IMG/VR virus record: IMGVR_UViG_3300027632_000001
Span: 1 to 37,376 of that record
Length of the DNA stretch: 37,376 bases
From: a virus
Strand: one strand, 5' to 3'
Shown here: positions 14,220 through 36,047 of the stretch, one piece after another
Position numbering within the stretch: position 1 is the first letter of the stretch
Layout: the number at the start of each line of letters is the position of its first letter
Program-made: the position numbers and the translations under genes
Notes under the pieces: generated by a model
What the model was told of the DNA's origin: nothing
Database searches by the model: none
Seen by the model: only the letters and a program-made list of their open reading frames with translations

Positions 14220-14246
14220 AGGAGACTCCAAGGATGGAGTCCTCCT
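14220..14246 (+). promoter_or_regulatory. GGA-loop hairpin (CCAAGGATGG core), CsrA/Rsm-type site
   Basis: Stem of 7 bp, a 1-nt bulge, then 4 bp around loop AGGA/AAGGAT. 6 nt after the gp16-like stop. Confidence 0.6.
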
Positions 14247-14262
14247 TCCAACAGGAGACTTA

Positions 14263-14793
14263 ATGAATACGATAATTGAAACCAAGGTCCTCACGTCCAA
14301 CGGCGTAGAGCACCTAACGCCTAACCGGCGTGAGATTGCTCCGGACGTCACTGCGTCTGCGGATGGCCTACCTTCGACCTTCCCGGCAGAGACGGCGCTT
14401 ATCCAAGGATCGGCCTCCGGGCTCCAATACACTACGGGTGGTGGCAACTTCTTAGTGCAGCTAGGCTGGGATGGCGGCTTCCAAACTACAGGATATAGCT
14501 CAGTATGCGTTCTCACCAACGCCACCGGCGTCTTCGCTGAGACAATGACTACGGGTATGCACGTCCATATGAATGTAGCCACGCGGGTGCTTACAGCTAG
14601 TCTGCTAATTATCAAAGTTGACGAGACCACGAACACCTACGTCTTCCGTATCAACTGTTTCTACGAAGATGGGGAGTGGGCTGGTGTATCTGCAGGAAGC
14701 GTGGCCTTAGCGCAGCCTGCGTCTAGGGTTCGTCTGCTCGGATCAGGAGGATCCACTTACAACCATACCTCGCTTAGTCTCACCTACCAATAG
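14263..14793 (+). CDS. Fiber-tip-domain paralog A (176 aa)
   Basis: Shares LG..(F)QTTGY ... RVRL ... L.L.Y-stop pattern with 14807 gene and the tail fiber C-terminus. GGAGA RBS. Confidence 0.7.
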   Translation: MNTIIETKVLTSNGVEHLTPNRREIAPDVTASADGLPSTFPAETALIQGSASGLQYTTGGGNFLVQLGWDGGFQTTGYSSVCVLTNATGVFAETMTTGMHVHMNVATRVLTASLLIIKVDETTNTYVFRINCFYEDGEWAGVSAGSVALAQPASRVRLLGSGGSTYNHTSLSLTYQ

Positions 14794-14806
14794 AAAGGAA
14801 TACGTA

Positions 14807-15313
14807 ATGCCTAACTCTGTAATCATTAATACTATCTATACTCCTAATCACCAGGAGAAATACAAGCCTACATCTGAGTCACCCATCAATGTCGCGGGAC
14901 TCACCGAGGCTGACTTCCTTCACATCCCTGCATATGCTCAGCGAATTTACCTGGCCTACCACAGTATCGTCTCCACGGACGCCTTTACGGTTACCTTGGG
15001 GGACGAGGACTCGTTCAAGACCACGGGGTATAACTGGAACTCCGCTAGGCTCACTGCCACAATCACCATGGCAGCGTCCACGGCAGGGTTCGAGATCCCG
15101 ACGGAAACCCCACCTCTCTTCAGTAACGGAATCCTCGAACTACAGCGGGCGACCGCGTCTAACATCTGGGTAGCTAGCCTAGTAAGTAGCTCTAATGTTG
15201 GCATGGTTAGGCAGGGGGCGGGCTCCTTAGATATCGCTAAGCCGTTGACTCGGATTAGATTCTCGAGCACCACCGCACTGACTAGCGGAACGGTGAACAT
15301 CATGTACAGCTAA
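14807..15313 (+). CDS. Fiber-tip-domain paralog B (168 aa)
   Basis: LGDEDSFKTTGY...NIWVASL...GAGSLDIAKPLTRIRF...GTVNIMYS aligns with the fiber C-terminus ...IKTTGY...NNWVSAH...GAGRVTLTGAIDRVNV...GLVKLYYR. Confidence 0.7.
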   Translation: MPNSVIINTIYTPNHQEKYKPTSESPINVAGLTEADFLHIPAYAQRIYLAYHSIVSTDAFTVTLGDEDSFKTTGYNWNSARLTATITMAASTAGFEIPTETPPLFSNGILELQRATASNIWVASLVSSSNVGMVRQGAGSLDIAKPLTRIRFSSTTALTSGTVNIMYS

Positions 15314-15334
15314 CCATAACCCAGGAGACTCTCC

Positions 15335-16714
15335 ATGGCCGTAACCACTCTAGAGACCAAGCTCGCGGAGGTCTCCTATCAAGCTGACGGAGTTGCAACT
15401 AGCTTCTCCGTCACCTTCCCCTACATCGCAAAGACCCACGTCAGTGTGAAGATCAATGGTGTGGTTGACGCCACCTTCACCTGGCCTTCAGACAGCACAG
15501 TCCAACCGACCAGCACCCCCGCCAACGGCGCGGTCGTGCGTATCGAGCGGACCACACCGACAGCTGCCCGGCTGGTAGACTTCCAGGACGCCACTGTCCT
15601 TGACGCCGCTACCCTAGACCTAGACAGCAACGACACGTTCTACGTAGCCCAGGAAGTTGTAGACGAGCTAGAGAACAACCTTGGCCTCACCACCGCTGGC
15701 ACCGAGTGGGACGCAGACAGCAAGCGCATCTCCAATGCAGCTGCCGGCACCGCCAGCACAGACCTAGTCACCAAGGCACAGCTCGACGCTGTCGTGGTTA
15801 CTAGCGGCAACGTCCCTACTCCTGGTAACCCTGCGGATAACGGCAAGGCTCTCGTGGCTTCTGCTGGTTCCTACTCGTGGACTCAGCTGTCCACAGCTAG
15901 CCTGAGCGAAACCTTCTCGGCTTACTCGTTGACCGTCCTTGACGACGCTGATGCGAATGCCGCCAAGGCTACCCTTGAGGTCACCACAGCTTCCACAGGT
16001 TCCATGGTTCTGCCCGTAGGTACCACAGCTCAGCGTGATGCCACGCCTGCTGAGGGATACCTCCGGCTCAACTCGACCACCAACGAGCTCGAAGTCTATG
16101 AGAGTGCCGCATGGCGCAACGTTAGGCGGGATCAGCTTTCCACAGGTTCCACAGGTTCTATCACCACACCTTCAGGTACCACAGCTCAGCGTGACGGTTC
16201 GCCTGCCAACGGCTACCTCCGGTACAACACCGACAACTCCATCTTCGAAGGATACGATGGTAGCTGGCGTGAGCTTCCGATGCGCTCTGAGGTTGCCGCC
16301 GAGGACCTTAGTGTATCCACTGGTGGTGTTACTTGGGCTGGCATTCCTGCCGGCACGAAGGAGATCAGTGTTGTCTTCTACGCTGTCAGCACCACGACAG
16401 GTGTAGACCCTCAGGTTCGCCTGGGTACGGGTGGTGTGATTAAGACCACAGGCTACGAGAGTCGCTCAACTGGCGTGAACTCGACAGGCGGCTTCGTAAT
16501 CAACTCCGACTCCTCGGGCAACACCATCAACGCCATCATGGACTTAAAGCTCGTGAGCGGCAACAACTGGGTATCGGCGCACTCCGCTTACGATGGCGAT
16601 GCGACCGACTTCACAGGAGCCGGTAGGGTTACCCTGACTGGTGCGATTGATCGTGTCAACGTGTACACCTCCGCGGCCTTCGATAACGGCCTCGTTAAAC
16701 TCTACTACCGATAG
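15335..16714 (+). CDS. Tail fiber, T7 gp17-like N-terminal adaptor domain
   Basis: 459 aa. SFSVTFPYIAKTHVSVKINGV...RLVDFQDATVLDAATLDLD...DADSKRISNAA...DLVTKAQL parallels the T7 gp17 N-terminal domain. Confidence 0.88.
   Translation: MAVTTLETKLAEVSYQADGVATSFSVTFPYIAKTHVSVKINGVVDATFTWPSDSTVQPTSTPANGAVVRIERTTPTAARLVDFQDATVLDAATLDLDSNDTFYVAQEVVDELENNLGLTTAGTEWDADSKRISNAAAGTASTDLVTKAQLDAVVVTSGNVPTPGNPADNGKALVASAGSYSWTQLSTASLSETFSAYSLTVLDDADANAAKATLEVTTASTGSMVLPVGTTAQRDATPAEGYLRLNSTTNELEVYESAAWRNVRRDQLSTGSTGSITTPSGTTAQRDGSPANGYLRYNTDNSIFEGYDGSWRELPMRSEVAAEDLSVSTGGVTWAGIPAGTKEISVVFYAVSTTTGVDPQVRLGTGGVIKTTGYESRSTGVNSTGGFVINSDSSGNTINAIMDLKLVSGNNWVSAHSAYDGDATDFTGAGRVTLTGAIDRVNVYTSAAFDNGLVKLYYR
15991..16227 (+). 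repeat. Two tandem 52-codon fiber repeats (...GTTAQRD..PA.GYLR.N...)
   Basis: 20-mer GGTACCACAGCTCAGCGTGA at 16019 and 16175 (156 nt apart) within longer similar blocks. Confidence 0.85.
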
Positions 16715-16725
16715 GAGTACAGACC

Positions 16726-17163
16726 TTGACCCTACGCACCAAAACCATTGACCTGAGTCTAGCCGCGGCCGACCCAAGGCGTGTTGTGATCGTCGAGGAG
16801 ACTGCCGAAGAAGAGTCCGCTCGTCTGCTCGCAGAGTCTATCGACCGAGCACCTGGCGGCGTTCTCCGCGAACAGCTAAAGGCCAACCTCAAGACAGCCG
16901 CAGCTGACATCCTGCTCGCCTCGTTCCCTGCATGGAAGCAGCGCAACTTCACCTTCCGGTACTTCGAGTTGACTCAGCTGGCCACTAGGACCGCCTCTGA
17001 GGAAGCCGAGCGTAACCACATCGCTGCCTGTTGGCAGTGGGCGAAGGACGTAGTAGCTGTAGGCAACGCAGCTGAGGAAGCTGTAGATGTCGCGGCCTCC
17101 TATGAGCTGGCTGCCGCTATCAAACTAACATGCCCTGGCTTCCCTGAGCCGGCATCCTTCTAA
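16726..17163 (+). CDS. Hypothetical protein (145 aa), TTG start
   Basis: TTG 8 nt after AGGAG (16713-16717). Follows the fiber gene. No motif recognised. Confidence 0.5.
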   Translation: MTLRTKTIDLSLAAADPRRVVIVEETAEEESARLLAESIDRAPGGVLREQLKANLKTAAADILLASFPAWKQRNFTFRYFELTQLATRTASEEAERNHIAACWQWAKDVVAVGNAAEEAVDVAASYELAAAIKLTCPGFPEPASF

Positions 17164-17170
17164 CCCTAAC

Positions 17171-17186
17171 GAGCCCTGAGGGGCTC
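17171..17186 (+). other. Hairpin GAGCCC-TGAG-GGGCTC
   Basis: 6-bp stem 8 nt after the stop of the 16726 gene. Confidence 0.5.
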
Positions 17187-17248
17187 TCTAAGACGCCTTT
17201 GGATTCCTTAGCTGTCTTAGACAACCCCTCAACCCTAGGTACAACACC

Positions 17249-17497
17249 ATGACACCCTCTCCCCCGACCCCTGGGTATCAGACCGACCCCGAGGTCGTCC
17301 GCTCTCTTGGACGCATCGAGGGTCAGCTGGTAGCCATGAATGAAGCAACCAAGCGCGTAGCTATGGTTCTACAGAATCACGACACGGACATCTCCCAGCT
17401 ACAGGTATTCCGAGGAAGAGTCTTCGGGCTGGCCGCTGCGCTCCCCATCATCGCCACACTGGCCGGTATCATCGCCGACATGGCAGGACTATTCTAA
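17249..17497 (+). CDS. Small protein with C-terminal transmembrane segment (82 aa)
   Basis: C-terminal VFGLAAALPIIATLAGIIADMAGLF. TAATG overlap with the next gene. Confidence 0.6.
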   Translation: MTPSPPTPGYQTDPEVVRSLGRIEGQLVAMNEATKRVAMVLQNHDTDISQLQVFRGRVFGLAAALPIIATLAGIIADMAGLF

Positions 17498-17799
17498 TGA
17501 GTATCAAGGATAAGGCAGTTGACGCCCTAGACAACATGAAGGCCAACCGTGAGGCAGACGCCAAGCGTGACTCCCTCTGGGAGATGCAGGCCCTCAAGGA
17601 TGCCGCAGCTTCCTGGAAGGATGAGCTGTTCACCGTCGCTTTCATCGTAATCCTCCTGGCTCCCCTCGTGGTATCCGAGAGTCAACTTCAGGTGGCCGTA
17701 GCTTTCTATGGTGGTCTTCCGCTGTGGCTGTCCGGCTGCATAGGTGGCGCCGTTAGTGCTAGCTTTGGCATCAGCGTGTGGAAGAAATTCAAGAGGTAG
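17497..17799 (+). CDS. Holin candidate (100 aa, two predicted TM segments)
   Basis: LFTVAFIVILLAPLVV and LPLWLSGCIGGAVSASFGISVW followed by KKFKR. T7 17.5-like position. Confidence 0.5.
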   Translation: MSIKDKAVDALDNMKANREADAKRDSLWEMQALKDAAASWKDELFTVAFIVILLAPLVVSESQLQVAVAFYGGLPLWLSGCIGGAVSASFGISVWKKFKR

Positions 17800-17802
17800 A
17801 CC

Positions 17803-18063
17803 ATGTCCAAAGCCGCAACACAAGAACAGATCGAAGCCTTGCACGGTGAGATCGCCAAAGCCCTGATGGTACAGCTCCGGGAGAATCCCACGGGCAGCAT
17901 CATCACGTCCGCCATCAACTTCGTCAAGCTCCACACTGTGGAAGTAGAAGACGAGGAGCCTGAGGAAGAGCCCGCAGCTCCCAAAGCTCCTAAGCGTAAA
18001 CCGAAGAAGCAGTCCATGGCAGGACTTGCAGACGAGCTAGAGGCAGCCTTAGGCGCCCGCTAG
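17803..18063 (+). CDS. terS: Putative small terminase subunit (gp18 position)
   Basis: 86 aa, directly upstream of the large terminase. Size is like T7 gp18. Positional call only. Confidence 0.45.
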   Translation: MSKAATQEQIEALHGEIAKALMVQLRENPTGSIITSAINFVKLHTVEVEDEEPEEEPAAPKAPKRKPKKQSMAGLADELEAALGAR

Positions 18064-18072
18064 CCAACCCCA

Positions 18073-18109
18073 GGCTAACTCACGGGTTCGACTCCCGGGT
18101 TAGCCACCA
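18073..18109 (+). ncRNA. tRNA-like acceptor/T-arm minihelix with encoded ACCA 3' end
   Basis: GGCTAAC (18073-79) pairs perfectly with GTTAGCC (18099-105). CGGG/CCCG stem with canonical 7-nt T-loop TTCGACT (18087-93). Then A-CCA (18106-09). No D or anticodon arm. Confidence 0.6.
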
Positions 18110-18158
18110 GATTCCTATGCTCTCCTGAGCTCCCTTCAACACAGCCCCGAGGTGATCC

Positions 18159-19871
18159 ATGGCTACCAAGAAGACCGAACCTCAAGTGGACCCTAGGTTC
18201 ACCAAGAGCTTCCAGCTGTTCCTCGCCTACATGTGGAAGGAGCTAGGACTCTCTCTACCCACCCCAGTCCAGCTAGACATCGCTGAGTTCCTACAGGATG
18301 GCCCTAAACGCCGCATGGTGAAAGGCTATCGAGGTGTAGGCAAGAGCTGGATCACAGCGTCGTACGTACTGTGGCGGCTCCTTAAGGACCCCCAGGAGCG
18401 TATCCTGGTGATCTCTGCGTCTAAGGACAGGGCTGACAGCTTCACGCGCTTCACGCGTAGGCTGATCGAAGACATGCCTATGCTGCATCACCTGAAGCCT
18501 CGCCCCGGGCAGGCCGATAGTGTCGTCAGCTTTGAGGTAGGACCTGCCGAGGCTAGCCAAAGCCCCTCGCTGAAGTCCGTAGGTATCGGTGGCCAGATCA
18601 CTGGCTCACGTGCCTCCATCATTATCGCCGATGACATCGAAGTCCCCAGCAACAGCCTGACCACCATGATGCGTGATCGCCTGGCTGAAGCTGTCAAGGA
18701 GTTCGACGCCATCCTAGTCCCCGGTGAGAACAGTGAAGTAATCTACCTAGGGACAGATCAGACAGAAGCTAGCCTGTACAAGCGTCTCCCTGAGCGTGGC
18801 TACGAGGTCAAGGTTTGGCCTGTACGTGTGCCCCGCGCAGATAAGGTACGTTCGTATGGCGACACCCTGGGACCCTACGTACGGCGTCTTATTGAGGACG
18901 AGGCAGAGCCTTGGTCGCCTGTGGACCCTGAGCGTTTCGACGAGGAAGACCTCCTGGAACGTGAAGCATCCTATGGTCGCTCCGGGTTCGCACAGCAGTT
19001 CATGCTTGATCCTGCCCTATCCGACATGGAGCGCTTCCCGCTTAAGTGTAGCGACGCCATGGTCCTGGATTCCGTGGACGTAGACCAGGCACCTACTGGA
19101 CTACAGTGGTCCACCAGGAAGGACGAGCGCCTTGAGCTGACTAACTATGGCCTCACAGGTGACCGCTGGCACAGAGCACTGATGCCTTCAGGAAGCGGCC
19201 TCGCACCCTTCACTGGCTCCGTCATGTTCGTTGACCCCTCAGGTAAGGGTTCGGATGAAACCGCCTGGGCCGTCGTTAAGATCGCCCTGGGGCGTCTCTT
19301 CGTGACAGCCATTGGGTCGTCTCGGGCTGGGTACGACGATGAGGTCCTCGACCAAATCGTAGCTACAGCCAAGGAGCACAAGGTCAACGTAGTCTCTGTT
19401 GAGCCTAACTTCGGTGGTGGACTCTTCAACAAACTCCTTCAGGGTGCCTTTGCTGCCCGTGGCTATGCCTGTGCGATCGAAGATGCACCTTGGGCTAAGG
19501 GTCAGAAGGAGATCCGTATCATCGAGACTATGGAGCCTCTACTGAACCAGCATCGTCTCGTCTTCTCGAGGGATGTGATCAACAAGGACGAACGTGTCCT
19601 ACATGACGACAGCATCCCGCCTCAGAAGAGGAAGGACTACATGCTGTTCCACCAACTCACCCGTATCACCAAGGAGCGTGGGAGCCTACGACACGATGAC
19701 CGTCTGGACGCGCTAGCAGGCGCCTGTGCCTACTGGACAGATCAGATGGCCCGTAGTGAGGCCCAAGCCGAGATGGACCACAGAGCGTCTCTTATGGACG
19801 CTGAGGTCGAAGCCTTCTTGGAAGAGATAGGTTCCGGCTCTGGTGGCCCTACCTGGAACAACCCTTGGTAA
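18159..19871 (+). CDS. terL: Terminase large subunit, T7 gp19-like
   Basis: 570 aa. ATPase-like region (...ILVISASKDRADSF..., IIIADDIEVP) and nuclease region (VMFVDPSGKGSDETAWAVV). Typical position and size. Confidence 0.92.
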   Translation: MATKKTEPQVDPRFTKSFQLFLAYMWKELGLSLPTPVQLDIAEFLQDGPKRRMVKGYRGVGKSWITASYVLWRLLKDPQERILVISASKDRADSFTRFTRRLIEDMPMLHHLKPRPGQADSVVSFEVGPAEASQSPSLKSVGIGGQITGSRASIIIADDIEVPSNSLTTMMRDRLAEAVKEFDAILVPGENSEVIYLGTDQTEASLYKRLPERGYEVKVWPVRVPRADKVRSYGDTLGPYVRRLIEDEAEPWSPVDPERFDEEDLLEREASYGRSGFAQQFMLDPALSDMERFPLKCSDAMVLDSVDVDQAPTGLQWSTRKDERLELTNYGLTGDRWHRALMPSGSGLAPFTGSVMFVDPSGKGSDETAWAVVKIALGRLFVTAIGSSRAGYDDEVLDQIVATAKEHKVNVVSVEPNFGGGLFNKLLQGAFAARGYACAIEDAPWAKGQKEIRIIETMEPLLNQHRLVFSRDVINKDERVLHDDSIPPQKRKDYMLFHQLTRITKERGSLRHDDRLDALAGACAYWTDQMARSEAQAEMDHRASLMDAEVEAFLEEIGSGSGGPTWNNPW

Positions 19872-19874
19872 CCT

Positions 19875-19910
19875 GAGGACACCTCTCACCCTTCGGGCCG
19901 AGGTGTCCTC
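19875..19910 (+). other. Long stem-loop (11-bp perfect stem) between terminase and endolysin
   Basis: GAGGACACCTC ... GAGGTGTCCTC with a 14-nt loop containing CCCTTCGGG. Confidence 0.65.
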
Positions 19911-19924
19911 TCTTGGAGTACACC

Positions 19925-20452
19925 ATGCACCACTCTCACTCGAACAAAGCCCTGGCTATCATCGCCGGGCTGTCCATGGCACTGGCAGTACTGTCCCTCA
20001 CAGATAGGGTTGTACAGGCAGCAGCCGAACGGACTTTTGTGTCAATGACTTTAACGGAGCAGCTGATGCTGCATGAGGGCGTAAGACTTAAGCCCTACAA
20101 GGATAGTGTAGGTAAGTGGACGATAGGAGTAGGACGTAACCTTAGTGACGTAGGGATAACCATGGGCGAGGCAGAGGTACTGCTCGAAGCGGACATTAAA
20201 CGGGCCCGCGGCGCAGCTGCTGAGTACACATGGTTCGAGAGCCTAAACGATACCCGACAAGATGTCGTGGTTGACATGATCTTTAACTTAGGCCCTCGTG
20301 GATTTGCTAGATTTAAAGCTACCCACAGGAAGATCGAGGCAGGTGATTACGCTGGCGCAGCCAGAAACATGCTGAGATCAAAGTGGGCTACGCAGGTTGG
20401 TACCCGTGCCACGCGATTGGCCCGCTGGATGGAGGAAGGAGTTAAGGGATAG
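19925..20452 (+). CDS. SAR endolysin, T4-lysozyme-like (GH24) muramidase
   Basis: LHEGVRLKPYKDSVGKWTIGVGRNL (Glu/Asp/Thr catalytic pattern). N-terminal weakly hydrophobic ALAIIAGLSMALAVLSL signal-anchor. ATG 19925 after GGAG. Confidence 0.88.
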   Translation: MHHSHSNKALAIIAGLSMALAVLSLTDRVVQAAAERTFVSMTLTEQLMLHEGVRLKPYKDSVGKWTIGVGRNLSDVGITMGEAEVLLEADIKRARGAAAEYTWFESLNDTRQDVVVDMIFNLGPRGFARFKATHRKIEAGDYAGAARNMLRSKWATQVGTRATRLARWMEEGVKG

Positions 20453-20495
20453 AGACAGAAGGCCACAAATACTCTAGCAAGGAGCCTAGGGAACA

Positions 20496-20608
20496 CCCCA
20501 AGGCATAGCCAAGGATGGCACACCGCAGGCCCAGTACAGGGCAATTCTCGCAGTCACACACCCCAAGGCCTCCCAAGGCCACCACAGGCCTCCCCAAGAA
20601 CCCCAAGG
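20496..20608. repeat. Array of CCCAAGG motifs (5-6 copies, partly about 10-bp phased)
   Basis: CCCAAGG at 20497, 20562, 20572, 20602. CCAAGG at 20509. CCCAAGA at 20593. Confidence 0.8.
20537..20557. repeat. 21-bp direct repeat, copy 1 (CAGGGCAATTCTCGCAGTCAC)
   Basis: 18/21 identical to 20642-20662. Confidence 0.8.
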
Positions 20609-20641
20609 CAAAGCTAGGGGTACCTCTCCGCATGCCCACTG

Positions 20642-20662
20642 CAGGGCAGTTCTCGAGGTCAC
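20642..20662. repeat. 21-bp direct repeat, copy 2 (CAGGGCAGTTCTCGAGGTCAC)
   Basis: 18/21 identical to 20537-20557. Confidence 0.8.
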
Positions 20663-20664
20663 CC

Positions 20665-20703
20665 GGAGGGAGCGAGGCGGAACGCCGAGCGAGTACCCTT
20701 AGG
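20665..20703 (+). repeat. GC-rich 40-bp element, copy A (GAGCGAGGCGGAACGCCGAGCG ... CCTTAGG)
   Basis: 22-mer core identical to 20998-21019 and reverse-complementary to 25132-25153. Confidence 0.85.
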
Positions 20704-20710
20704 TACCTCA

Positions 20711-20751
20711 GCTTTATTTTGTTACTAAAATTCGAGCACCTTTTATATATA
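20711..20751. other. AT-rich island flanked by inverted GC-element copies A and B
   Basis: GCTTTATTTTGTTACTAAAATTCGAGCACCTTTTATATATA in an otherwise GC-rich non-coding region. Confidence 0.6.
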
Positions 20752-20802
20752 GGAGGAAGGCGCGAACCCCCCGTATACCCTTAGTCTACGAAGCCCAGGC
20801 CA

Positions 20803-20841
20803 CCATAGGCCACCGCTCGCCTTCGGCTCGCTCGCTCCGCG
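20803..20841 (-). repeat. GC-rich 40-bp element, copy B (variant, inverted)
   Basis: CCATAGGCCACCGCTCGCCTTCGGCTCGCTCGCTCCGCG aligns with copy D. Central hairpin changed from GGCG/CGCC to GCC/GGC. Confidence 0.75.
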
Positions 20842-20879
20842 CAGCACACACCTACACACACGAGGCTCACACGAGCTCT

Positions 20880-20963
20880 CCTTCAGGTTGCCTCAGGGTT
20901 CCTTAGCTAAGGTAGCCCTAGACACCGCAGGCCTGCTCAAGGGGACCTCAGGGCGTCCTCAGG
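20880..20963. repeat. Cluster of CCT(N)AGG short motifs
   Basis: CCTTCAGG 20880, CCTCAGG 20891, 20946 and 20957. More copies at 21024 and 21035. Confidence 0.7.
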
Positions 20964-20992
20964 TGGGTGCGGGTACTCCTTATAAGATAGGC

Positions 20993-21030
20993 GCGAGGAG
21001 CGAGGCGGAACGCCGAGCGGGTTCCTTAGG
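20993..21030 (+). repeat. GC-rich 40-bp element, copy C
   Basis: GAGCGAGGCGGAACGCCGAGCG at 20998-21019 followed by CCTTAGG 21024-21030. 45 bp upstream of the first early promoter. Confidence 0.85.
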
Positions 21031-21074
21031 TTTTCTTTAGGCGTAGGAGAGGACTACGCTCTGGCTTTTTGCAC

Positions 21075-21103
21075 TTGACTTCTCTGTCTAGGTGGTGTAG
21101 CCT
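21075..21103 (+). promoter_or_regulatory. Sigma70-like promoter P1 (TTGACT-N17-TAGCCT)
   Basis: First promoter-like site upstream of the early gene block. Weak -10. Confidence 0.45.
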
Positions 21104-21170
21104 ACGCACTCCGATAACACAGAGGCCAGTGAGGGATGCCGCAGGCGGCCCGAGGTGGCCTCAGGAGACC

Positions 21171-21419
21171 ATGACTATGCAGACCAACATTAACCGCTAC
21201 GATATGATCGATGTGATGGAAGGACAGGGACACGCCTGTGCTGACTGCTCTAAGCAGGTAGACTCAGCCTGGTTCGCACCGTGGGACTACCGAGCCTTCG
21301 TGATGTACGATGCTGGACAAGACGCACTGGGTGACATGGTGTGTGGTCCATGCCTAGAGGAGCGAGGTGAGGTGGAGGGTACGTACAGGGCAGTGGAATA
21401 CTTTCTGCTGAAAGACTGA
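21171..21419 (+). CDS. Early protein, CxxC...CxxC zinc-ribbon-like (82 aa)
   Basis: ATG 21171 after AGGAG (21163-67). CADC ... CGPC pairs. Confidence 0.6.
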   Translation: MTMQTNINRYDMIDVMEGQGHACADCSKQVDSAWFAPWDYRAFVMYDAGQDALGDMVCGPCLEERGEVEGTYRAVEYFLLKD

Positions 21420-21428
21420 AAATAAATG

Positions 21429-21457
21429 TTGACAAGCTACACAAGGACGTGTAGACT
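21429..21457 (+). promoter_or_regulatory. Sigma70-like promoter P2 (TTGACA-N17-TAGACT) with A-rich upstream tract
   Basis: Intergenic. Followed 9 nt later by the CTGAACGAA box. Confidence 0.7.
21437..21454 (+). promoter_or_regulatory. GGA-loop hairpin CTACAC-AAGGAC-GTGTAG inside the P2 spacer
   Basis: 6-bp perfect stem, hexaloop AAGGAC. Confidence 0.6.
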
Positions 21458-21502
21458 GTACCCACGCTGAACGAAACGAAACACCAACCAGAGAGAAAGA
21501 CC

Positions 21503-21730
21503 ATGGAAAACATCTTCAAAGCAATAGCACGCACCTCCTTCGGCCGCTGGGCCAGTACGCGAGGAGACTCAGGCGGCGTGGTGCTCTTCTTCATCAGTGT
21601 CTCCATCTACGCGATAATGGACCTGCCCCATGCTGAAGTACCTGGATACGTAGACCTATTCTTCATCGCCCCAATTGTTGGCTGGGTGTGGTTCGTAACC
21701 CAGATTGGTTACCACTTACCACGCAAGTAG
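21503..21730 (+). CDS. Early membrane protein (75 aa, two hydrophobic segments)
   Basis: ORF downstream of P2. VVLFFISVSIYAI and LFFIAPIVGWVWFV. Confidence 0.6.
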   Translation: MENIFKAIARTSFGRWASTRGDSGGVVLFFISVSIYAIMDLPHAEVPGYVDLFFIAPIVGWVWFVTQIGYHLPRK

Positions 21731-21751
21731 ATGACAAACAGGAGAAGCCAG

Positions 21752-28730: not shown

Positions 28731-28786
28731 CTGACGGGGCTGCGGCCCCTTACCCAGACAACGCACAACATCAATCGGAGATTAAC

Positions 28787-29410
28787 ATGCCTAAGAACAA
28801 GACCTATGCTACCCCTAAGTCCACCGCCGTCTTCCCTTGGATCACCAAGCCTGACACTCGGTTCGACGCAGCCGGCACCTACAAGACTGGGCTGGCTTTC
28901 GAAGAGGACGCACCCTTCCTGGCTGAGCTGGAAGAGATCGTAGAAGCAGAGAAGGTTAAGCTCCGGAAGTCCGGCAAGCTGACGAAGGCGAAGGAGGGTC
29001 GGTTCCACATGCCGATCAAACCTGAGACCACCAAGAATGCTGAGGGAGAATACGAAGAGACAGGCCGCCTAGTCGTGACCTTCAAGTCGAAGGCTCAGTG
29101 GCCAGATGGTAGCCCGAAGGAGATGAAAGTCTTCGACGCTAAGGGCAAGGCGATGAAGGGAGTTAACGTCTTTGGTGGTGCTGAGATCAAGGTAGCCTTT
29201 AGTGCTAGCGGATACAGCCATGGTGCTAACGTAGGTGTCGCCCTCTACATGAATGCGGTACAGGTTATCAACCTGGCTAGCAAGCAGGACACCGGAGAGT
29301 CCTTCGGGTTCGGAGTAGAGGAAGGTGGGTACGAGTTCAAGGAAGCAGATGCCGAGGACGAATCTGCTGAGGACATCATCACCACTGAAGCTGACGACGA
29401 GGAGTTCTAA
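28787..29410 (+). CDS. ssDNA-binding protein, T7 gp2.5-like
   Basis: 207 aa. N-terminal ...AVFPWITKPD... and acidic C-terminal tail ending ...EADDEEF (gp2.5-type tail with terminal Phe). Confidence 0.8.
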   Translation: MPKNKTYATPKSTAVFPWITKPDTRFDAAGTYKTGLAFEEDAPFLAELEEIVEAEKVKLRKSGKLTKAKEGRFHMPIKPETTKNAEGEYEETGRLVVTFKSKAQWPDGSPKEMKVFDAKGKAMKGVNVFGGAEIKVAFSASGYSHGANVGVALYMNAVQVINLASKQDTGESFGFGVEEGGYEFKEADAEDESAEDIITTEADDEEF

Positions 29411-29417
29411 CTCAACC

Positions 29418-29445
29418 GGCCCCAAGGATGGGGCCTTTCTTATTT
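29418..29445 (+). terminator. Intrinsic terminator that is also a GGA-loop hairpin (GGCCCC-AAGGAT-GGGGCC + T-rich tail)
   Basis: 6-7-bp GC stem, then TTTCTTATTT. Confidence 0.75.
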
Positions 29446-29455
29446 GGAGAGCACT

Positions 29456-29845
29456 ATGATAGAGTTCACACTGAACACTAAGCCAGTCCCCTGCCCCCGC
29501 CCTCGCGTCACACGCTATGGCCGGAGCTACTACCCCAAGACCTACACAGCCTGGAAAGCTGAGGCCACCAAAGACCTACCAAAGAACCCAGAGTTCTTCT
29601 CCGACCCAGTCCGGGTCACCATCTCAAACGTCATCCCCCAGTTCAAGACCAAGGCAGCCGCCGCTAAGAACAAGCAACCCAAGGGAGACGTTGACAACTA
29701 CGCCAAGTCTGTACTAGACTTGATCACCTCAGCGAAGTCCCCGATCTGGGACGACGACGACCAGGTAGTAGAGCTGCTGGTGACCAAGCGATTCGCAGCT
29801 GACGGCGAGGAACCACACACCGAAGTCACCATCGAAAATATTTAG
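29456..29845 (+). CDS. rusA: RusA-family Holliday junction resolvase
   Basis: ...KPVPCPRPRVTRYG.SYYP..Y..WK... and KGDVDNYAKSVLDLIT...IWDDDDQVV typical of RusA. ATG 29456 after GGAGAG. Confidence 0.8.
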   Translation: MIEFTLNTKPVPCPRPRVTRYGRSYYPKTYTAWKAEATKDLPKNPEFFSDPVRVTISNVIPQFKTKAAAAKNKQPKGDVDNYAKSVLDLITSAKSPIWDDDDQVVELLVTKRFAADGEEPHTEVTIENI

Positions 29846-29853
29846 GAAAACCC

Positions 29854-29882
29854 TTGACACGGACGTCACCTTCCATTATCAT
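29854..29882 (+). promoter_or_regulatory. Sigma70-like promoter P10 (TTGACA-N17-TATCAT)
   Basis: CTGAACAAAC box 29892-29901. Weak hairpin TGAC-ACGGAC-GTCA at 29855-29868. Confidence 0.65.
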
Positions 29883-29916
29883 AATCCCGAGCTGAACAAA
29901 CACCGAGGAAAACAAA

Positions 29917-30027
29917 ATGTCCAAGATCAAGACTACCGTTGAGTTCACCATCCTTCTTCTCGCCAGCGGCACCTTCGCCTACAGCGTGGCCGTCCTGGCC
30001 GAGGCCCTCTACCGCACCTTCGGGTAG
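29917..30027 (+). CDS. Membrane micro-protein (36 aa)
   Basis: ATG after GAGGAA. ...FTILLLASGTFAYSVAVLAEAL... Confidence 0.4.
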   Translation: MSKIKTTVEFTILLLASGTFAYSVAVLAEALYRTFG

Positions 30028-30039
30028 GAGACACACACA

Positions 30040-30672
30040 ATGAACAAGCCAAAGCTCTGGCAAGAGAAAGACCTGAAGGGAATCTGGGACGTGACCCGCA
30101 AGCTGGACGGAGTCCGGATGCTGCGGGACGAGGACGGCAACCCCGTCAGCCGCAACGGCAAACCTCTGTACAATCTAGAAGGTATACCCGCTGACATCAC
30201 CGACGCGGAGATCTTCATCGACAACTGGGAGACCACGGTGTCCCGAGTCCGGAGCCACAACGGCGAGCCGGTACCAGCTGAGGCAGCCTACACTATCGAG
30301 CCGCTCGACCCCAGGCTATACCTCAAGCGCTTAGCTAACCCGACGGTCACCACCATCAAGGAAGAATTGACCCTGGCCCTGGCCCGAGGAGAGGAAGGGC
30401 TGGTGCTGAGGCAGGGAGACAAGTGGTTGAAGGTCAAGCCGAAGGAGACCTACGACGTTGAGGTGACAGGTGCAACGGAAGGCAAGGGTAAGTTCGCTGG
30501 TCAGATCGGCGCGCTCATCACACCGATGGGCAATGTCTCCGGGTTCAACGACTACCTTCGCCGTGAGTTCACGAAGGAACTCCCGAAGCTGATTGAGGTA
30601 GAGGCCATGGGCCTGACGCCTCGAGGTAAGTTCCGCCATCCCCGCTTCGTGCGAGTGAGGTTCGACAAATGA
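30040..30672 (+). CDS. ATP-dependent DNA ligase, unusually small (210 aa)
   Basis: Motif I RKLDGVR (Lys21), EGLVLR (IV), WLKVKP (V), RHPRFVRVRFDK (VI). Confidence 0.8.
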   Translation: MNKPKLWQEKDLKGIWDVTRKLDGVRMLRDEDGNPVSRNGKPLYNLEGIPADITDAEIFIDNWETTVSRVRSHNGEPVPAEAAYTIEPLDPRLYLKRLANPTVTTIKEELTLALARGEEGLVLRQGDKWLKVKPKETYDVEVTGATEGKGKFAGQIGALITPMGNVSGFNDYLRREFTKELPKLIEVEAMGLTPRGKFRHPRFVRVRFDK

Positions 30673-32345
30673 GTATACATGGAGATGTCACCCGCCGGGC
30701 CGAGTGCCCGAGCTGCGGCAGCACAGACAACGTCGCGGTCTATGAGGATAACTACGAGAAGTGCTTCGGCTACGGCTGCGAGTACTTCAAGATGCCGGAC
30801 GGAGAGAGACCAATGGAACAGAAGAGTAAGCCAGGAAGTAAGGCACACGAGCGTAGTCAGGTAGAGGATCCCATCATCGAGGACCTGCCGGCACGCGGAC
30901 TGACTGAAGAGACAGCGAAGAAGTGGAGCTACGAGAAAGCAACTGTGCACGGGAAGAAGGCGCAGGTAGCGAACTACTACAAGGACGGGAAGTGGGTATG
31001 CGCGAAGGTCCGCTTCAAGGGTAAGGAGTTCCGGATGATCGGCGATGGCGGCGACGCCCCACTGTACGGACAGCACCTCTGGCGCGACGGAGGCAAGCAC
31101 CTCGTGATCGTCGAGGGAGAGATCGATGCGATGTCGGTGTCCCAGATACAGGGACATAAGTGGCCGGTCGTGAGCCTACCCTCTGGTGCTGGCGGAGCAG
31201 TCCGCTCCGTACAAAAGAACTTAGAGTTCGTCGAAGGATACGACAGGGTTGTGTTGATGTTCGACGGGGACGAGCCGGGCCAGCAGGCAGCTCGTGACGT
31301 AGCTGAGCTACTCACACCGGGCAAGGCGCACATAGCCCAGCTCCCCTTGAAAGACGCGAATGAGATGTTGAAGGCAGGCCGCAGCGCTGAACTTATCTCA
31401 GCGTTCTGGGATGCGAAAGTGCACAGGCCTGATGGCATAGTGTCGGGTGCAGACTTATGGGATGACATCGTAGCAGAGCAGCCCGGTGCGGGGATCGAGT
31501 ACCCTTGGTCTGGTCTCAACGAGAAGCTGCTGGGCATCAGGCCTGGTGAGTTGGTCACGGTGACAGCTGGTTCGGGCATCGGTAAGTCCACGTTCGTACG
31601 GCAGTTGGCTCACCACCTTGGTACCAACAACGGACAGACCATAGGATACATCGGGCTAGAAGAGTCAACGCGGAAGACAGCGCTTGAGTTGATGAGCGTT
31701 CACGCCAAGAAGAGATGGAGCGTAGACTTCAGGCAGCACGCCGACCTCACCAGTGAGGAGCAGGCTGAGCGGAAGCAGGTGTTCGACGAGGTACTGGGTA
31801 CCGGAAGGTTCCACCTTTACGATCACTTCGGCTCAACCAACTCTGATAGTCTGCTGGCTAAGATACGCTACCTCATCAAGGGATGCGGCGCTCGGTTCGT
31901 AGTCCTAGACCACCTCAGTATCGTGGTCTCAGCGATGGACGACGACAGCAAGCTGGACGAGAGGAAGCTCCTGGACAAGACGATGACAAAGCTTCGGACC
32001 TTGGTGGAGGAGACAGGCGCAGGACTCATCCTGGTGTCGCATCTCCGTCGGCCAGGCGGAGAAGGCAAGGGTTGGGAGCGCGGCCGAGAGGTAGCACTGT
32101 CTAGCCTACGTGGGTCCGCCGCCATCGAGCAGCTCTCAGATGTGGTGCTCGGGTTGGAGCGGGATCAGCAGCAGGAAGGAAGCCCGGTCGCTCTTCGAGT
32201 GTTGAAGAACAGACCTATAGGTAGGACAGGCATCGCCACCTACCTGAAGTATGATGAGGAGACGGGGCTATACGAGGAGACGGAGCCCCCTGGTGATAGC
32301 GACGCGGCGGTCTTCATGGAGGAGAAAGATAGCGGCGACTTCTAA
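30669..32345 (+). CDS. Bifunctional DNA primase/helicase, T7 gp4-like
   Basis: Zn-ribbon CPSCGS...CFGYGC, TOPRIM LVIVEGEIDAMS, Walker A GSGIGKST and DnaB-like C-terminal region. Confidence 0.93.
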   Translation: MSIHGDVTRRAECPSCGSTDNVAVYEDNYEKCFGYGCEYFKMPDGERPMEQKSKPGSKAHERSQVEDPIIEDLPARGLTEETAKKWSYEKATVHGKKAQVANYYKDGKWVCAKVRFKGKEFRMIGDGGDAPLYGQHLWRDGGKHLVIVEGEIDAMSVSQIQGHKWPVVSLPSGAGGAVRSVQKNLEFVEGYDRVVLMFDGDEPGQQAARDVAELLTPGKAHIAQLPLKDANEMLKAGRSAELISAFWDAKVHRPDGIVSGADLWDDIVAEQPGAGIEYPWSGLNEKLLGIRPGELVTVTAGSGIGKSTFVRQLAHHLGTNNGQTIGYIGLEESTRKTALELMSVHAKKRWSVDFRQHADLTSEEQAERKQVFDEVLGTGRFHLYDHFGSTNSDSLLAKIRYLIKGCGARFVVLDHLSIVVSAMDDDSKLDERKLLDKTMTKLRTLVEETGAGLILVSHLRRPGGEGKGWERGREVALSSLRGSAAIEQLSDVVLGLERDQQQEGSPVALRVLKNRPIGRTGIATYLKYDEETGLYEETEPPGDSDAAVFMEEKDSGDF

Positions 32346-32350: not shown

Positions 32351-32387
32351 AAAGCCTTGGCCTTCGGGTCAGGGCTTTCTTGCGTTT
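32351..32387 (+). terminator. Intrinsic terminator (12-bp stem with UUCG loop, A-tract/T-tract flanks)
   Basis: AAAGCCTTGGCC-TTCG-GGTCAGGGCTTT then CTTGCGTTT. Confidence 0.7.
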
Positions 32388-34342: not shown

Positions 34343-34348
34343 CTGATA

Positions 34349-34364
34349 GGGAGCTTCGGCTCCC
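34349..34364 (+). other. c(UUCG)g GC hairpin at gene junction
   Basis: GGGAGC-TTCG-GCTCCC. Confidence 0.6.
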
Positions 34365-34383
34365 TTACCTTTCGGAGATTGAA

Positions 34384-34935: not shown

Positions 34936-34964
34936 TTGACAACCCACACGGAAGTGGGTATCAT
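34936..34964 (+). promoter_or_regulatory. Sigma70-like promoter P12 (TTGACA-N17-TATCAT)
   Basis: Intergenic, 4 nt after the HNH stop. Confidence 0.65.
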
Positions 34965-35003
34965 TACTCCCGCATTGAGAACAACCCAACCAGGAGACTC
35001 ACC

Positions 35004-35192
35004 ATGTACGAAGAGATTAACGTTGACGGAGCCCAGGAGATCGTTGACCGCTGGAACAAAGCGAACCCCGGAAAGGCCGTCGCGAAAGTCCTCTACTACC
35101 CCATGAAGGCAGCCGCCATGTACGGCACAAGCCTTGACACCGCCGACATAGAGTACTATACTGACGGCCTCTTCGAACCCATCGCCAACTAA
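35004..35192 (+). CDS. Hypothetical protein (62 aa)
   Basis: ATG after CAGGAGAC. ORF-track ORF. Confidence 0.6.
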   Translation: MYEEINVDGAQEIVDRWNKANPGKAVAKVLYYPMKAAAMYGTSLDTADIEYYTDGLFEPIAN

Positions 35193-35203
35193 GAACACAC
35201 TCA

Positions 35204-35219
35204 GCCACAGGGACGTGGC
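35204..35219 (+). promoter_or_regulatory. GGA-loop hairpin GCCAC-AGGGAC-GTGGC
   Basis: 5-bp stem, hexaloop AGGGAC. Intergenic. Confidence 0.6.
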
Positions 35220-35233
35220 ATCAGGAGACACAC

Positions 35234-36013
35234 ATGCCTAAGAAAATAAGAACCGCACTTATCGATGCTGATGCGTACTGCTACGCGGCAGCCTTCAGCG
35301 CCGAGTCGAAGTACAACTTCGGTGGTGAAGACATTGTGGAGGTAGACGAGGACGCAGCTATCGCTAAGGCTGAGAGCCTAATCGCTGACTCCGTCGCTGA
35401 GGTGGAGGCAGATGAGCTTATCCTCTGCCTGAGTAGCCCACGATCTGATGTTGACCTTTGGCGCTTTGAGGTGCTGCCTTCTTATAAGAGTAACCGCAAA
35501 GCTAAGCCTAAGCCGGAGGCCTACCCCGCAGTCCGACGCCACCTAGAGGCCACTTATGACTGCTACATGGAACCTCGACTAGAAGCTGACGACATCATGA
35601 CTCTGCTCAGCTCCGACCCGACCATGATTCCCGGTATCAAAGTCGTGGTCTCGCAGGACAAAGACCTGCTGCAAACCATAGGCAGGTACTATAACCCGCG
35701 GACTCGCGAGAAGAGGATCATCAAGGCCGACGAGTCGAATCGCTGGCACATGATGCAGACCTTACAAGGCGACACCGTTGACGGATACAAAGGTATCCCC
35801 GGAATAGGCCCGAAGAAAGCTGAGAAGATCCTAGAGGATGTAGCCTGGGGCGACCGATGGGCAGCTGTGGTCGAAGCCTACGAATCCAAAGGCCTCACCG
35901 AGGAAGACGCGCTGGCTCAAGCCCGCGTAGCCTACATGATGCAGACTCCCAGCTACGACTGGACAACCAAAGAGGTAACCCTCTGGACACCTGACCTACA
36001 CCCGCCGAAATAA
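35234..36013 (+). CDS. 5'-3' exonuclease (FEN family), T7 gp6-like
   Basis: LIDADAYCY, SYKSNRK, EADDIM, SQDKDL, GDTVDGYKGIPGIGPKKAEKIL. Confidence 0.88.
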   Translation: MPKKIRTALIDADAYCYAAAFSAESKYNFGGEDIVEVDEDAAIAKAESLIADSVAEVEADELILCLSSPRSDVDLWRFEVLPSYKSNRKAKPKPEAYPAVRRHLEATYDCYMEPRLEADDIMTLLSSDPTMIPGIKVVVSQDKDLLQTIGRYYNPRTREKRIIKADESNRWHMMQTLQGDTVDGYKGIPGIGPKKAEKILEDVAWGDRWAAVVEAYESKGLTEEDALAQARVAYMMQTPSYDWTTKEVTLWTPDLHPPK

Positions 36014-36025
36014 ACCTCAAATAAA

Positions 36026-36047
36026 AGCTTGACAAGGACGTCGAGCT
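36026..36047 (+). promoter_or_regulatory. GGA-loop hairpin AAGCTTGAC-AAGGAC-GTCGAGCTT overlapping the P13 -35
   Basis: 8-bp stem (one G-U), hexaloop AAGGAC. Confidence 0.6.

Follow-up and report, generated by a model that had tools for sequence, protein, structure and literature searches.

Cistron-end hairpins with a conserved GGA loop resembling CsrA/RsmA sites in a T7-like phage genome

The 37,376-nucleotide stretch of viral DNA analyzed here (the window) belongs to a T7-like phage and carries, on its + strand, about 12 hairpins in which one GGA-containing loop recurs on stems of differing sequence. Their enrichment was confirmed to be real and far above chance. From the sequence, we tentatively favor the reading that these hairpins are cistron-end RNA elements carrying a loop recognized by a trans-acting protein; because the motif equals its optimal site, the CsrA/RsmA family is the leading candidate reader.

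All hairpin sequences listed in an earlier note on this DNA were found at their positions. Perfect N5-ANGGAN-N5' hairpins (stem of at least 5 bp) numbered nine on the + strand and one on the − strand. The shuffled-genome count that the note had proposed gave 0.18 ± 0.41 such hairpins (200 dinucleotide shuffles, maximum 2), and unrelated viral contigs (3.35 Mb of strand-bases) gave 0.29 per 37-kb strand, in line with its estimate of well under one per strand by chance. The strict form, C-ANGGAY-G, was observed seven times versus 0.045 per 37-kb strand in the unrelated contigs. Against that background, the Poisson probability is ~3e-11 for the nine perfect hairpins, ~7e-14 for the seven strict ones, and still ~6e-7 for the free-standing hairpins alone, with all promoter-overlapping copies dropped. 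The 10-mer CCAAGGATGG, which the note had counted four times on the + strand only, does occur four times there (0.04 expected), and all seven occurrences of ACANGGACGT (0.29 expected) are likewise on the + strand. A covariance model scan of both strands of the window returned 12 matches above 17 bits on the + strand and one on the − strand, with no further strong copies. Two assemblies made independently, L016 and L017, agree at 100% identity across 15313-31276, and so the hairpins are not an assembly artifact.

The stem sequences are all distinct, whereas the loop and two closing pairs are constant, reading ACA-N-GGAC-GT in seven copies and CCAAGGATGG in four. The invariant CA[A/G]GGA[T/C]G proposed earlier is not strict, failing for the hairpin at 24855 (closing pair G-C), 29855 (loop ACGGAC), or 34942-34959 (loop ACGGAA). 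When folded as RNA with ±46 nt of context, 9 of the 13 hairpins had a closing-pair probability of at least 0.99 with the GGA unpaired (P ~1); weaker closing pairs were predicted at 24860 (0.70), 35209 (0.76), 29859 (0.57), and 27609 (0.32). In the hairpin alignment, which had been selected for pairing, 92% of cells were paired versus 24 to 46% in slid controls. GGAG was present in 0 of 13 loops versus 24 of 33 Shine-Dalgarno (SD) sequences (p = 5e-6); the loops are not SD copies. The earlier claim that both fold and loop sequence are under selection was supported.

Six members are clear of overlapping promoters (all coordinates refer to the + strand). The long bulged hairpin at 14217-14249 (loop AAGGAT at 14230-14235, core CCAAGGATGG, closing pair P = 1.00) begins 3 nt past the stop codon of the gp16-like gene at 14214 and is the sole late-region member; the SD sequence of gene 14263 has its GGA 22 nt downstream of the loop GGA. 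A free-standing hairpin at 23267-23286 (core CCAAGGATGG, outer G·U pair) begins 6 nt past the stop at 23260, and its end lies 24 nt ahead of the promoter at 23310-23338. Two further free-standing 5-bp hairpins with AGGGAC loops abut phage-RNAP promoters: that at 24855-24870 (GGGAG/CTCCC) begins 16 nt past the stop at 24838 and stops 25 nt short of the promoter at 24896-24915, and that at 27604-27619 (GGCCC/GGGCC), for which an alternative fold competes, begins 8 nt past the RNAP stop at 27595 and ends 2 nt ahead of the promoter at 27622-27641. This phage-RNAP promoter, GTTGGAGGCCCTCCTATAGA, has four copies (0 expected), the other two being at 37087 and 37125. The 6-bp hairpin at 29418-29435 (GGCCCC/GGGGCC, core CCAAGGATGG) begins 7 nt past the SSB stop at 29410 and is followed by TTTCTTATTT; it is the sole member with an intrinsic-terminator tail, and 20 nt separate its loop GGA from the downstream SD GGA of gene 29456. 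Finally, the free-standing 5-bp hairpin at 35204-35219 (GCCAC/GTGGC, loop AGGGAC, ACAGGGACGT) begins 11 nt past the stop at 35192, and the exonuclease gene (ATG 35234) has its SD GGA 13 nt beyond the loop GGA; being downstream of the promoter at 35134-35162, the hairpin falls in that promoter's 5' UTR.

Six other hairpins (21437, 21950, 29855, 34942, 36026, and 36508) occupy the −35/spacer of σ70-type promoters (TTGACA-N17-TAnnnT), an overlap absent from the earlier account. The 6-bp hairpin at 21437-21454 (CTACAC/GTGTAG, loop AAGGAC) lies entirely in the spacer and −10 of the promoter at 21429-21457, its loop starting 24 nt past the stop at 21419, while the 5' arm of that at 21950-21967 (6 bp, GTTGAC/GTCAAC, loop AAGGAC) is the −35 TTGAC of the promoter at 21951-21979, with the loop starting 13 nt past the stop at 21943. 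At 29845-29874, a 4-bp stem (TGAC/GTCA, 29855-29868, loop ACGGAC), whose 5' arm is the −35 of the promoter at 29854-29882, is extended by an outer GGAA/TTCC helix, and its loop starts 14 nt past the stop at 29845. The previously unlisted 6-bp hairpin at 34942-34959 (ACCCAC/GTGGGT, loop ACGGAA) fills the spacer of the promoter at 34936-34964 (loop start 16 nt past the stop at 34932). The 8-bp hairpin at 36026-36047 (AGCTTGAC/GTCGAGCT, one G·U pair, loop AAGGAC) holds the −35 of the promoter at 36029-36057 within its 5' arm (loop start 21 nt past the stop at 36013). The copy at 36508, described earlier as weak, is weak by itself (a 3-bp GAC/GTC helix around AAGGAC; 17.1 bits for 36502-36525), but gains pairing from a second helix outside it (4 bp, CTGC/GCAG), set off by a 2x2 internal loop; it overlaps the −35 of the promoter at 36506-36534. 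The other weak copy, at 20505-20522, is probably not a member, because its 3-bp stem around CCAAGGATGG (20508-20519, + strand, 11.8 bits) sits in a CCAAGG-rich repeat, within a 0.7-kb noncoding region rich in CCCAAGGC repeats, whose paralogous sister repeat (20600-20662) lacks the motif.

Four of the six promoter-overlapping hairpins belong to paralogous promoter cassettes and are therefore not independent, and they would be present in RNA only upon read-through. That so many copies occupy the −35/spacer of strong promoters, with TTGACAAGGACGTC common to three and TTGACACGGACGTC in a fourth, and that two more abut phage promoters, raises the alternative that the element acts as DNA: the ACAAGGACGT / CANGGAYG core would form part of σ70-type promoters or an operator overlapping them, for example one bound by a phage repressor to silence the promoters used by host RNAP. 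We consider this very unlikely. The register of the core relative to the −35 is inconstant (0, +6, and +8 nt), at least seven other strong promoters lack the core, and the clear members at 14217, 23267, 24855, 27604, and 29418 have no promoter over them, with 35204 downstream of one. Stems of 5 to 8 bp with 6-nt loops would also make poor cruciforms. Moreover, in the paralogous promoter copies, changes ahead of the −35 are matched by compensating changes in the spacer (G:C/C:G, A:T/T:A), which shows that the hairpin is retained beyond promoter needs; a duplex site explains neither this covariation nor inverted repeats of unrelated sequence.

The placement at gene junctions reported earlier was borne out: the loop starts 13 to 24 nt past a stop codon in 11 cases (mode 14), whereas the next start codon lies anywhere between 14 and 367 nt away. 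The hairpin therefore belongs to the upstream gene. UUCG/GAAA hairpins fill the same post-stop position at other junctions of this genome. We doubt that the GGA-loop hairpins are likewise plain intercistronic stabilizers or terminators with no specific reader, their loop shared by descent through intragenomic copying of a hairpin/promoter cassette, perhaps with a mild preference for purine-rich loops. Their position and stem strength do equal those of the UUCG/GAAA hairpins, 29418 is itself a canonical terminator, paralogy is clear for four copies, and syntenic elements in phage LUZ100 carry unrelated loops. However, copying should not erase all stems and flanks yet keep 8 to 10 loop and closing positions in at least eight independent copies; the bias is significant for free-standing copies alone and absent from unrelated viral DNA; and ANGGAY is not known to be among the specially stabilized loops of the Turner 2004 nearest-neighbor set.

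Ten of the 11 hairpin junctions lie in the early/middle region transcribed by host RNAP, where 10 of 31 genes have one, versus 1 of 22 in the late region (p = 0.017), and the hairpins end predicted transcription units, mostly just ahead of or overlapping the next promoter. Because only 29418 has a U tract, termination elsewhere would need a factor. It is thus possible, if on balance unlikely, that the same cistron-end RNA hairpins have a different reader, a phage-encoded early protein or a non-CsrA host factor, acting in host-RNAP termination or antitermination, as λ N and HK022 Nun do on boxB, or in site-specific RNA processing. No family was assigned to about 20 small early proteins (none at Pfam E ≤ 0.01 or PHROGs E ≤ 0.001), and several of them are basic (24530-24838 with 15 Arg; 23838-24008 with pI 10). 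λ boxB offers a parallel in its variable 5-bp stem, conserved purine-rich loop, location on host-RNAP early transcripts, and recognition by a protein that alters termination, for which any phage counterpart here is putative. Unlike λ nut, however, the phage has a GGA hexaloop instead of a GNRA-like pentaloop and ~12 sites instead of two; no boxA-like conserved flank was seen beside the hairpins, and no recognizable RNA-binding domain or N-like arginine-rich N terminus was found among the early proteins searched. With such a reader, it would be coincidental that the motif matches the CsrA optimum exactly.

The RsmE-hcnA consensus is A/U-CANGGANG-U/A. In the CsrA SELEX consensus, RUACARGGAUGU, ACA and GGA are invariant and the GGA lies in a hairpin loop (PMC4347634), and the earlier identification of the phage motif with the CsrA/RsmE optimum agrees with it: ACA-R-GGA-Y-GU fits the ACARGGAUGU core at 9 of 10 positions, and CAAGGAUG fits exactly (PMC4347634, PMC7366521). 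Like CsrA/RsmA/RsmE hairpins, the phage copies have a short stem that a C-G pair closes and that is capped by a hexaloop containing GGA, with ACA preceding the GGA (seven ACA-N-GGAC-GU, four C-CAAGGAUG-G). They differ in lying in a phage genome, in being anchored to the upstream stop codon and not a downstream ribosome binding site, and in their final loop base, for which 8 of 13 copies have C where SELEX has U. Three resemble dual-site CsrA leaders, with an SD GGA 13 to 22 nt downstream, but most copies lack a partner site (a second GGA is in bridging range in only 3 to 4 of 13). The phage genome encodes no CsrA gene, and we found no literature report of CsrA-type hairpins of this sort in a phage genome.

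We infer that the elements function at the RNA level, that their loop is recognized by a protein, and that this protein is CsrA-like. The stem-loops may mark 3' ends, both of single cistrons and of units transcribed by host RNAP, standing where ordinary terminator or stabilizer hairpins would, with the C-A-N-G-G-A-Y-G loop and closing pairs as the recognition element for a putative trans-acting RNA-binding protein. The candidate, a host CsrA/RsmA-family protein, would bind phage early and middle mRNAs, capping and stabilizing the hairpin at the 3' end of the preceding cistron, and at genes 14263, 29456, and 35234 it could bridge the loop to the downstream SD GGA, thereby tuning translation. 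Sequestration of CsrA would then be a by-product, not the design.

Known Csr/Rsm sponges carry many GGA hairpins within one small RNA of a few hundred nucleotides. The earlier note had preferred such a CsrB/RsmZ-like role, in which phage transcripts mainly titrate host CsrA/RsmA and switch off its regulon. The multiple GGA motifs presented by sponge RNAs (CsrB, CsrC, RsmX/Y/Z; PMC7366521, PMC8545117) do have a counterpart in ~12 near-optimal, SELEX-like sites on transcripts expected to be abundant in infection. The sites are nevertheless unclustered, one per junction at intervals of 0.4 to 6 kb over 22 kb of mRNA, and the window has no match to the Rfam Csr/Rsm families. The fixed stop-codon offset instead points to a cis role on each mRNA, and titration as the main function is therefore improbable.

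The phage has no close relative (best identity, ≤37% for RNAP and ≤58% for terminase). The conservation in related phages that the note had proposed as a check did not emerge: the hairpins were found in 0 of 16 distant relatives and not in LUZ100, whose host has RsmA. This absence counts against a CsrA-type reader, and a lineage-specific reader would account for it. The hosts of the closest cultured phages also weigh against CsrA. Alphaproteobacteria are not known to have CsrA; the closest cultured phages have mostly Alpha- and Betaproteobacteria as hosts. Among Betaproteobacteria, CsrA was found in two species only, and it is absent from some proteobacterial classes (PMC7366521). Like the RNase III sites of T7, the phage hairpins are intercistronic in a T7-like genome and would set the ends of mRNAs, but their 5- to 10-bp stems are too short for RNase III, and the loop, not the helix, is conserved. 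Mapped transcript 3' ends of LUZ100 (ONT-cappable-seq) fall at syntenic junctions after SSB and after gp47, the gene in the gp16 position; taken together, its T5, T16, and T19 occupy junctions that match those here (downstream of SSB, downstream of the gp16 equivalent, and beside the promoter following the RNAP gene), and they share with the phage hairpins a short distance to the stop codon and, in most cases, the lack of a U tract. The LUZ100 loops are mutually unrelated (UUCG and others), in contrast to the one loop at ~12 sites here, and only 5 of its 22 mapped transcript ends are predicted intrinsic terminators.

The window contains nine perfect N5-ANGGAN-N5′ hairpins on the + strand and one on the − strand, against an expectation per strand of 0.18 ± 0.41 in shuffled sequences (maximum, 2) and 0.29 in natural viral DNA (3.35 Mb of unrelated viral contigs). 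The strict C-ANGGAY-G form occurred seven times against 0.045 expected in the natural DNA (Poisson P ~ 3e-11 for the perfect hairpins and ~ 7e-14 for the strict form). The underlying sequences were likewise overrepresented, with seven copies of ACANGGACGT (0.29 expected) and four of CCAAGGATGG (0.04 expected), all on the + strand. The hairpin set is highly nonrandom, and the excess over chance claimed in an earlier note on this DNA held against both controls. Three or four weaker hairpins accompany the nine perfect ones, whose stems are at least 5 bp, and a covariance model trained on 11 of the copies recovered one additional + strand copy (36503), one − strand match, and no more. Every sequence listed in the earlier note was found at its position; however, the list overlooked a member with the loop ACGGAA (34942-34959), the copy it placed at 20505 is probably a mere part of a CCAAGG-rich repeat, and the motif that it described as constant is not perfectly so. 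The lone − strand hairpin of the ANGGAN type (gcgacACGGAAgtcgc, 4841-4856, 17.5 bits) lies within a coding region and fits chance, at an expectation of ~0.3.

When folded in the native RNA context, 9 of 13 hairpins formed with a probability of at least 0.99 and with GGA unpaired (P ~ 1), so that each short stem exposes GGA in its apical loop, as in CsrA/RsmA sites. Stems are 5 to 8 bp long, except at 14217, where the stem reaches 13 to 14 bp with a one-base bulge. The asymmetry between G·U and A·C pairs, a test of RNA sense, comprised just 2 versus 1 cases. Plain stabilizing hairpins without a reader are an improbable explanation, given that simple descent does not account for a conserved loop with two conserved closing pairs in copies whose stems and flanks are unrelated. 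Because the stem varies while the loop is fixed, the hairpin is probably read single-stranded by a trans-acting factor.

The window is a complete T7-like podophage genome. Bases 1 to 127 recur exactly at 37250-37376, which gives a unit length of 37,249 bp. The 127-nt end repeat would fit either a circular assembly overlap or a terminal repeat; 127 is a common maximum k-mer. All genes lie on the + strand, including those for the portal (480-2033), capsid (3336-4262), nozzle (5549-7900), a gp16-position protein (10891-14214), terminase (18159-19871), and a single-subunit RNAP (25238-27595), together with SSB, RusA, ligase, primase-helicase, DNAP, and exonuclease. The gp16-position protein matched no Pfam family at E ≤ 0.001; size and gene order are the grounds for calling it gp16-like. 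Judged by sequence comparison, the phage is an orphan. A megablast search of the RNAP gene against phages gave no match, the top RNAP match among 5.8 billion proteins was 37% identical, and the top terminase match was 58% identical. The nearest cultured phages (LUZ100 and phages of Ralstonia, Rhizobium, Roseobacter, Caulobacter, and Pelagibacter) showed ~35% (RNAP) to 53% (capsid) identity. Fragments in two other assemblies (L016 and L017) are 100% identical and represent the same phage; they confirm that the sequence is real yet show no microdiversity. When IMG/VR was scanned for TTGACAAGGACGTC, for the phage promoter, and for the conserved leader, the patterns gave zero or single chance matches. 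A search with the tail-fiber receptor domain for host inference returned no named organisms, and the C-terminal receptor-binding part of the tail fiber had no homologue in cultured phages. The tail-fiber gene also carries an 84-nt internal direct repeat (16018-16101 and 16174-16257, 71% identical), and within the scaffold-position gene a 15-nt tandem repeat, AGAGCCTAAGGCAGA, present in ~5 copies (2504-2578), encodes an EEPKA-like repeat peptide.

A catalogue of stable intergenic hairpins showed that most junctions bearing noncoding sequence have one that starts 3 to 17 nt after the stop codon. These hairpins fell into two main loop classes, namely UUCG/GAAA tetraloops, several with U tracts, and ANGGAY. 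In 11 cases the ANGGAY loop starts 13 to 24 nt (mode, 14) past the stop codon, and the next start codon follows at a distance of anywhere between 14 and 367 nt, which ties the element to the upstream gene. ANGGAY hairpins follow 10 of 31 early/middle genes versus 1 of 22 late genes (P = 0.017). A U tract right after a G+C-rich hairpin, the mark of an intrinsic terminator, was found only at 29418-29435, whose tail is TTTCTTATTT; the other ANGGAY members have no U tract and are followed by mixed sequence. In LUZ100, a distant cultured relative, transcript 3′ ends have been mapped by experiment at the syntenic junctions (T5 after SSB, T19 after gp47, the gp16-position gene, and T16 after the capsid gene), and predicted intrinsic terminators make up only 5 of the 22 mapped ends. 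A phage promoter lies directly 3′ of the LUZ100 RNAP gene. On the basis of position and synteny, we infer that the ANGGAY hairpins are cistron-end or transcription-unit-end elements. The tetraloop hairpins, C(UUCG)G or GAAA, lie 3 to 9 nt after stops (26-41 [=37275-37290], 4272-4289, 4918-4935, 32351-32378, and 34348-34365; 7904-7933 and 24420-24445). Those with U tracts include examples after the capsid gene, after the primase-helicase gene, and before the structural module, and the class appears to comprise the phage's canonical terminators or stabilizers.

We next consider the promoters. Across the early/middle region (21.4 to 36.5 kb), 21 σ70-like matches (TTGACA-like and TATAAT-like hexamers 16 to 18 nt apart) were detected, all on the + strand, against 6.5 expected from shuffles, and many match 10 to 11 of 12 positions. 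The late region contains no + strand promoter of this kind and only four weak matches, three of them on the − strand, fewer than the 6.3 expected in shuffles. Six hairpins lie inside σ70-type promoters (21429, 21951, 29854, 34936, 36029, and 36506; each 10 to 11 of 12 positions), an overlap missed in the first account of the motif; no such promoter lies over the hairpins at 14217, 23267, 24855, 27604, 29418, and 35204. In the hairpins at 21950, 29855, 36026, and 36508, the −35 TTGAC forms the 5′ arm and the loop opens with the final A of TTGACA; those at 21437 and 34942 take up the promoter spacer. The first four are in-register, paralogous promoter cassettes and are therefore not independent. 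Within these cassettes, bases upstream of the −35 element covary with spacer bases (G:C, C:G, C:G; A:T, T:A) and the stem is extended differently in each copy, so the hairpin is maintained beyond promoter needs. A role at the level of DNA or the promoter, as the overlap might suggest, is very unlikely: variable inverted repeats would be superfluous for a site in duplex DNA, the register relative to the −35 element is not the same in all promoters, and five clear members are not overlapped by any promoter.

The σ70-type promoters include a repeat family (21424-21477, 21946-21999, 23595-23648, 27757-27810, 29849-29902, and 36024-36077) whose members have in common an A-rich tract upstream and, in the transcribed part, a conserved leader, CCACACTGAACGAACA, with CA/GA-rich sequence from there to the start codon; host-RNAP transcripts may thus carry a second cis-element, separate from the hairpins, in this leader. 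The 20-nt phage-RNAP promoter, GTTGGAGGCCCTCCTATAGA, occurs in only four copies (24896-24915, 27622-27641, 37087-37106, and 37125-37144; 0 expected). Hairpins 24855 and 27604 stand just upstream of two of these, and, as in LUZ100, one phage-RNAP promoter precedes the RNAP gene itself. The structural genes are preceded by two tandem phage-RNAP promoters, the second running directly into a hairpin, ACAGGGGAAGCCCTGT, with a T run (37144-37168).

For CsrA, SELEX gave the consensus RUACARGGAUGU, in which ACA and GGA do not vary and a hairpin loop holds the GGA (PMC4347634; PMC7366521). Compared with (RU)ACARGGAUGU, seven of our copies have ACA-N-GGAC-GU and four have C-CAAGGAUG-G; the seven ACANGGACGT and four CCAAGGATGG copies match the consensus, bearing out the original assignment to the CsrA/RsmA type. 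Departures consist of C for U after GGA (8 of 13 copies) and CC/GG for AC/GU (4 copies). To our knowledge, the CsrA/RsmA family is the only known reader with such loop specificity. A second GGA lies downstream of the loop at 14230 (+22), 29424 (+20), 35209 (+13), and 27609 (+14), and is absent or distant at the other copies. At three junctions the loop GGA is 13 to 22 nt upstream of the Shine-Dalgarno (SD) GGA of the next gene, a geometry that suits bridging by a CsrA dimer, for which distances of 10 to 63 nt were reportedly found by Mercante et al. in 2009; the SD is the usual partner site. We tentatively propose, as a possibility falling somewhat short of an even chance, that the hairpins stand at the 3′ ends of cistrons and host-RNAP transcription units and that the loop recruits a candidate CsrA/RsmA-type protein, which would protect the end of the mRNA by stabilizing it and would also occupy the downstream SD at three genes.

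Several observations count against a CsrA reader. Partner GGAs accompany only three or four copies, and the hosts of most related phages are Alpha- or Betaproteobacteria. CsrA is patchy across the Proteobacteria: a published survey found it in only two betaproteobacterial species and states that some proteobacterial classes lack it (PMC7366521). No such hairpins were found in 16 distant relatives (L001 to L015 and L018) or in LUZ100, whose host has RsmA. The phage itself encodes no detectable CsrA (Pfam search; phmmer --max, best E = 1.7). Another loop-reading factor, for example a termination, antitermination, or processing protein, is a rather unlikely alternative; no RNA-binding domain was found among the phage-encoded proteins. 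A dedicated Csr/Rsm sponge, the CsrB/RsmZ-like architecture put forward in the earlier note, seems to us quite improbable even with near-consensus sites, since these are dispersed over coding transcripts, one per gene junction and 0.4 to 6 kb apart, whereas CsrB/RsmZ-type sponges gather many GGA hairpins in one small noncoding RNA, and Rfam gave no match at E ≤ 1; a tRNA scan was also negative.

Other known elements were rejected. A G comes directly after GGA in 24 of 33 SDs versus 0 of 13 loops (P = 5e-6), and because GGAG occurs in most SDs and never in the loops, the hairpins are neither SD copies nor anti-SD or ribosome-binding elements. T7-type RNase III sites were dismissed on stem length (5 to 8 bp versus about two turns of double-stranded RNA, often with an internal loop). 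Unlike nut/boxB sites, the elements have a hexaloop rather than a pentaloop and no conserved flank corresponding to boxA; an arginine-rich, N-like N terminus was absent from the early proteins. Restriction, Chi, or uptake sequences were excluded because none would need variable inverted repeats.

For this lytic T7-like phage as a whole, we regard it as a fair possibility, though less likely than not, that near-optimal CsrA/RsmA hairpins at about a dozen early/middle cistron 3′ ends recruit the host's global posttranscriptional regulator onto phage mRNAs, which would partly drain it, or else that a new RNA-binding factor, encoded by the phage, reads the loops and thereby sets host-RNAP transcript ends. 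If the reader is of the CsrA/RsmA type, this would be, as far as our literature search shows, the first phage to wire its own mRNAs into the host Csr/Rsm network via an array of optimal sites; neither a virus-encoded cis-regulatory use of Csr/Rsm nor phage hairpins serving as CsrA sites were found described in the literature. Such wiring would affect when phage genes are expressed and how the host's physiology changes in the course of infection, and the signature could help to predict CsrA-bearing hosts of uncultured phages. With a reader other than CsrA, the family would mark a loop-specific factor at the ends of host-RNAP transcription units. Under either reading, the element is short and modular.

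Inverted repeats flank the whole early-gene block, ~4.1 to 4.4 kb apart (20649-20691/25132-25174, 43 nt, 81% complementary; 20998-21032/25119-25153, 35 nt, 91% complementary). A direct repeat, GGAGCGAGGCGGAACGCCGAGCG, is present at 20669 and 20997, and the noncoding regions 20452-21170 and 24916-25176 are rich in CCTAAG/CTTAGG and CCCAAGGC short repeats. These repeats could be genome-end, origin, or recombination features. Identical GCTAACACACACACACACA leaders, consisting of (CA)n tracts, occur directly after two stop codons (22170-22188 and 22329-22347) and precede two tiny hydrophobic open reading frames of 41 and 62 amino acids.
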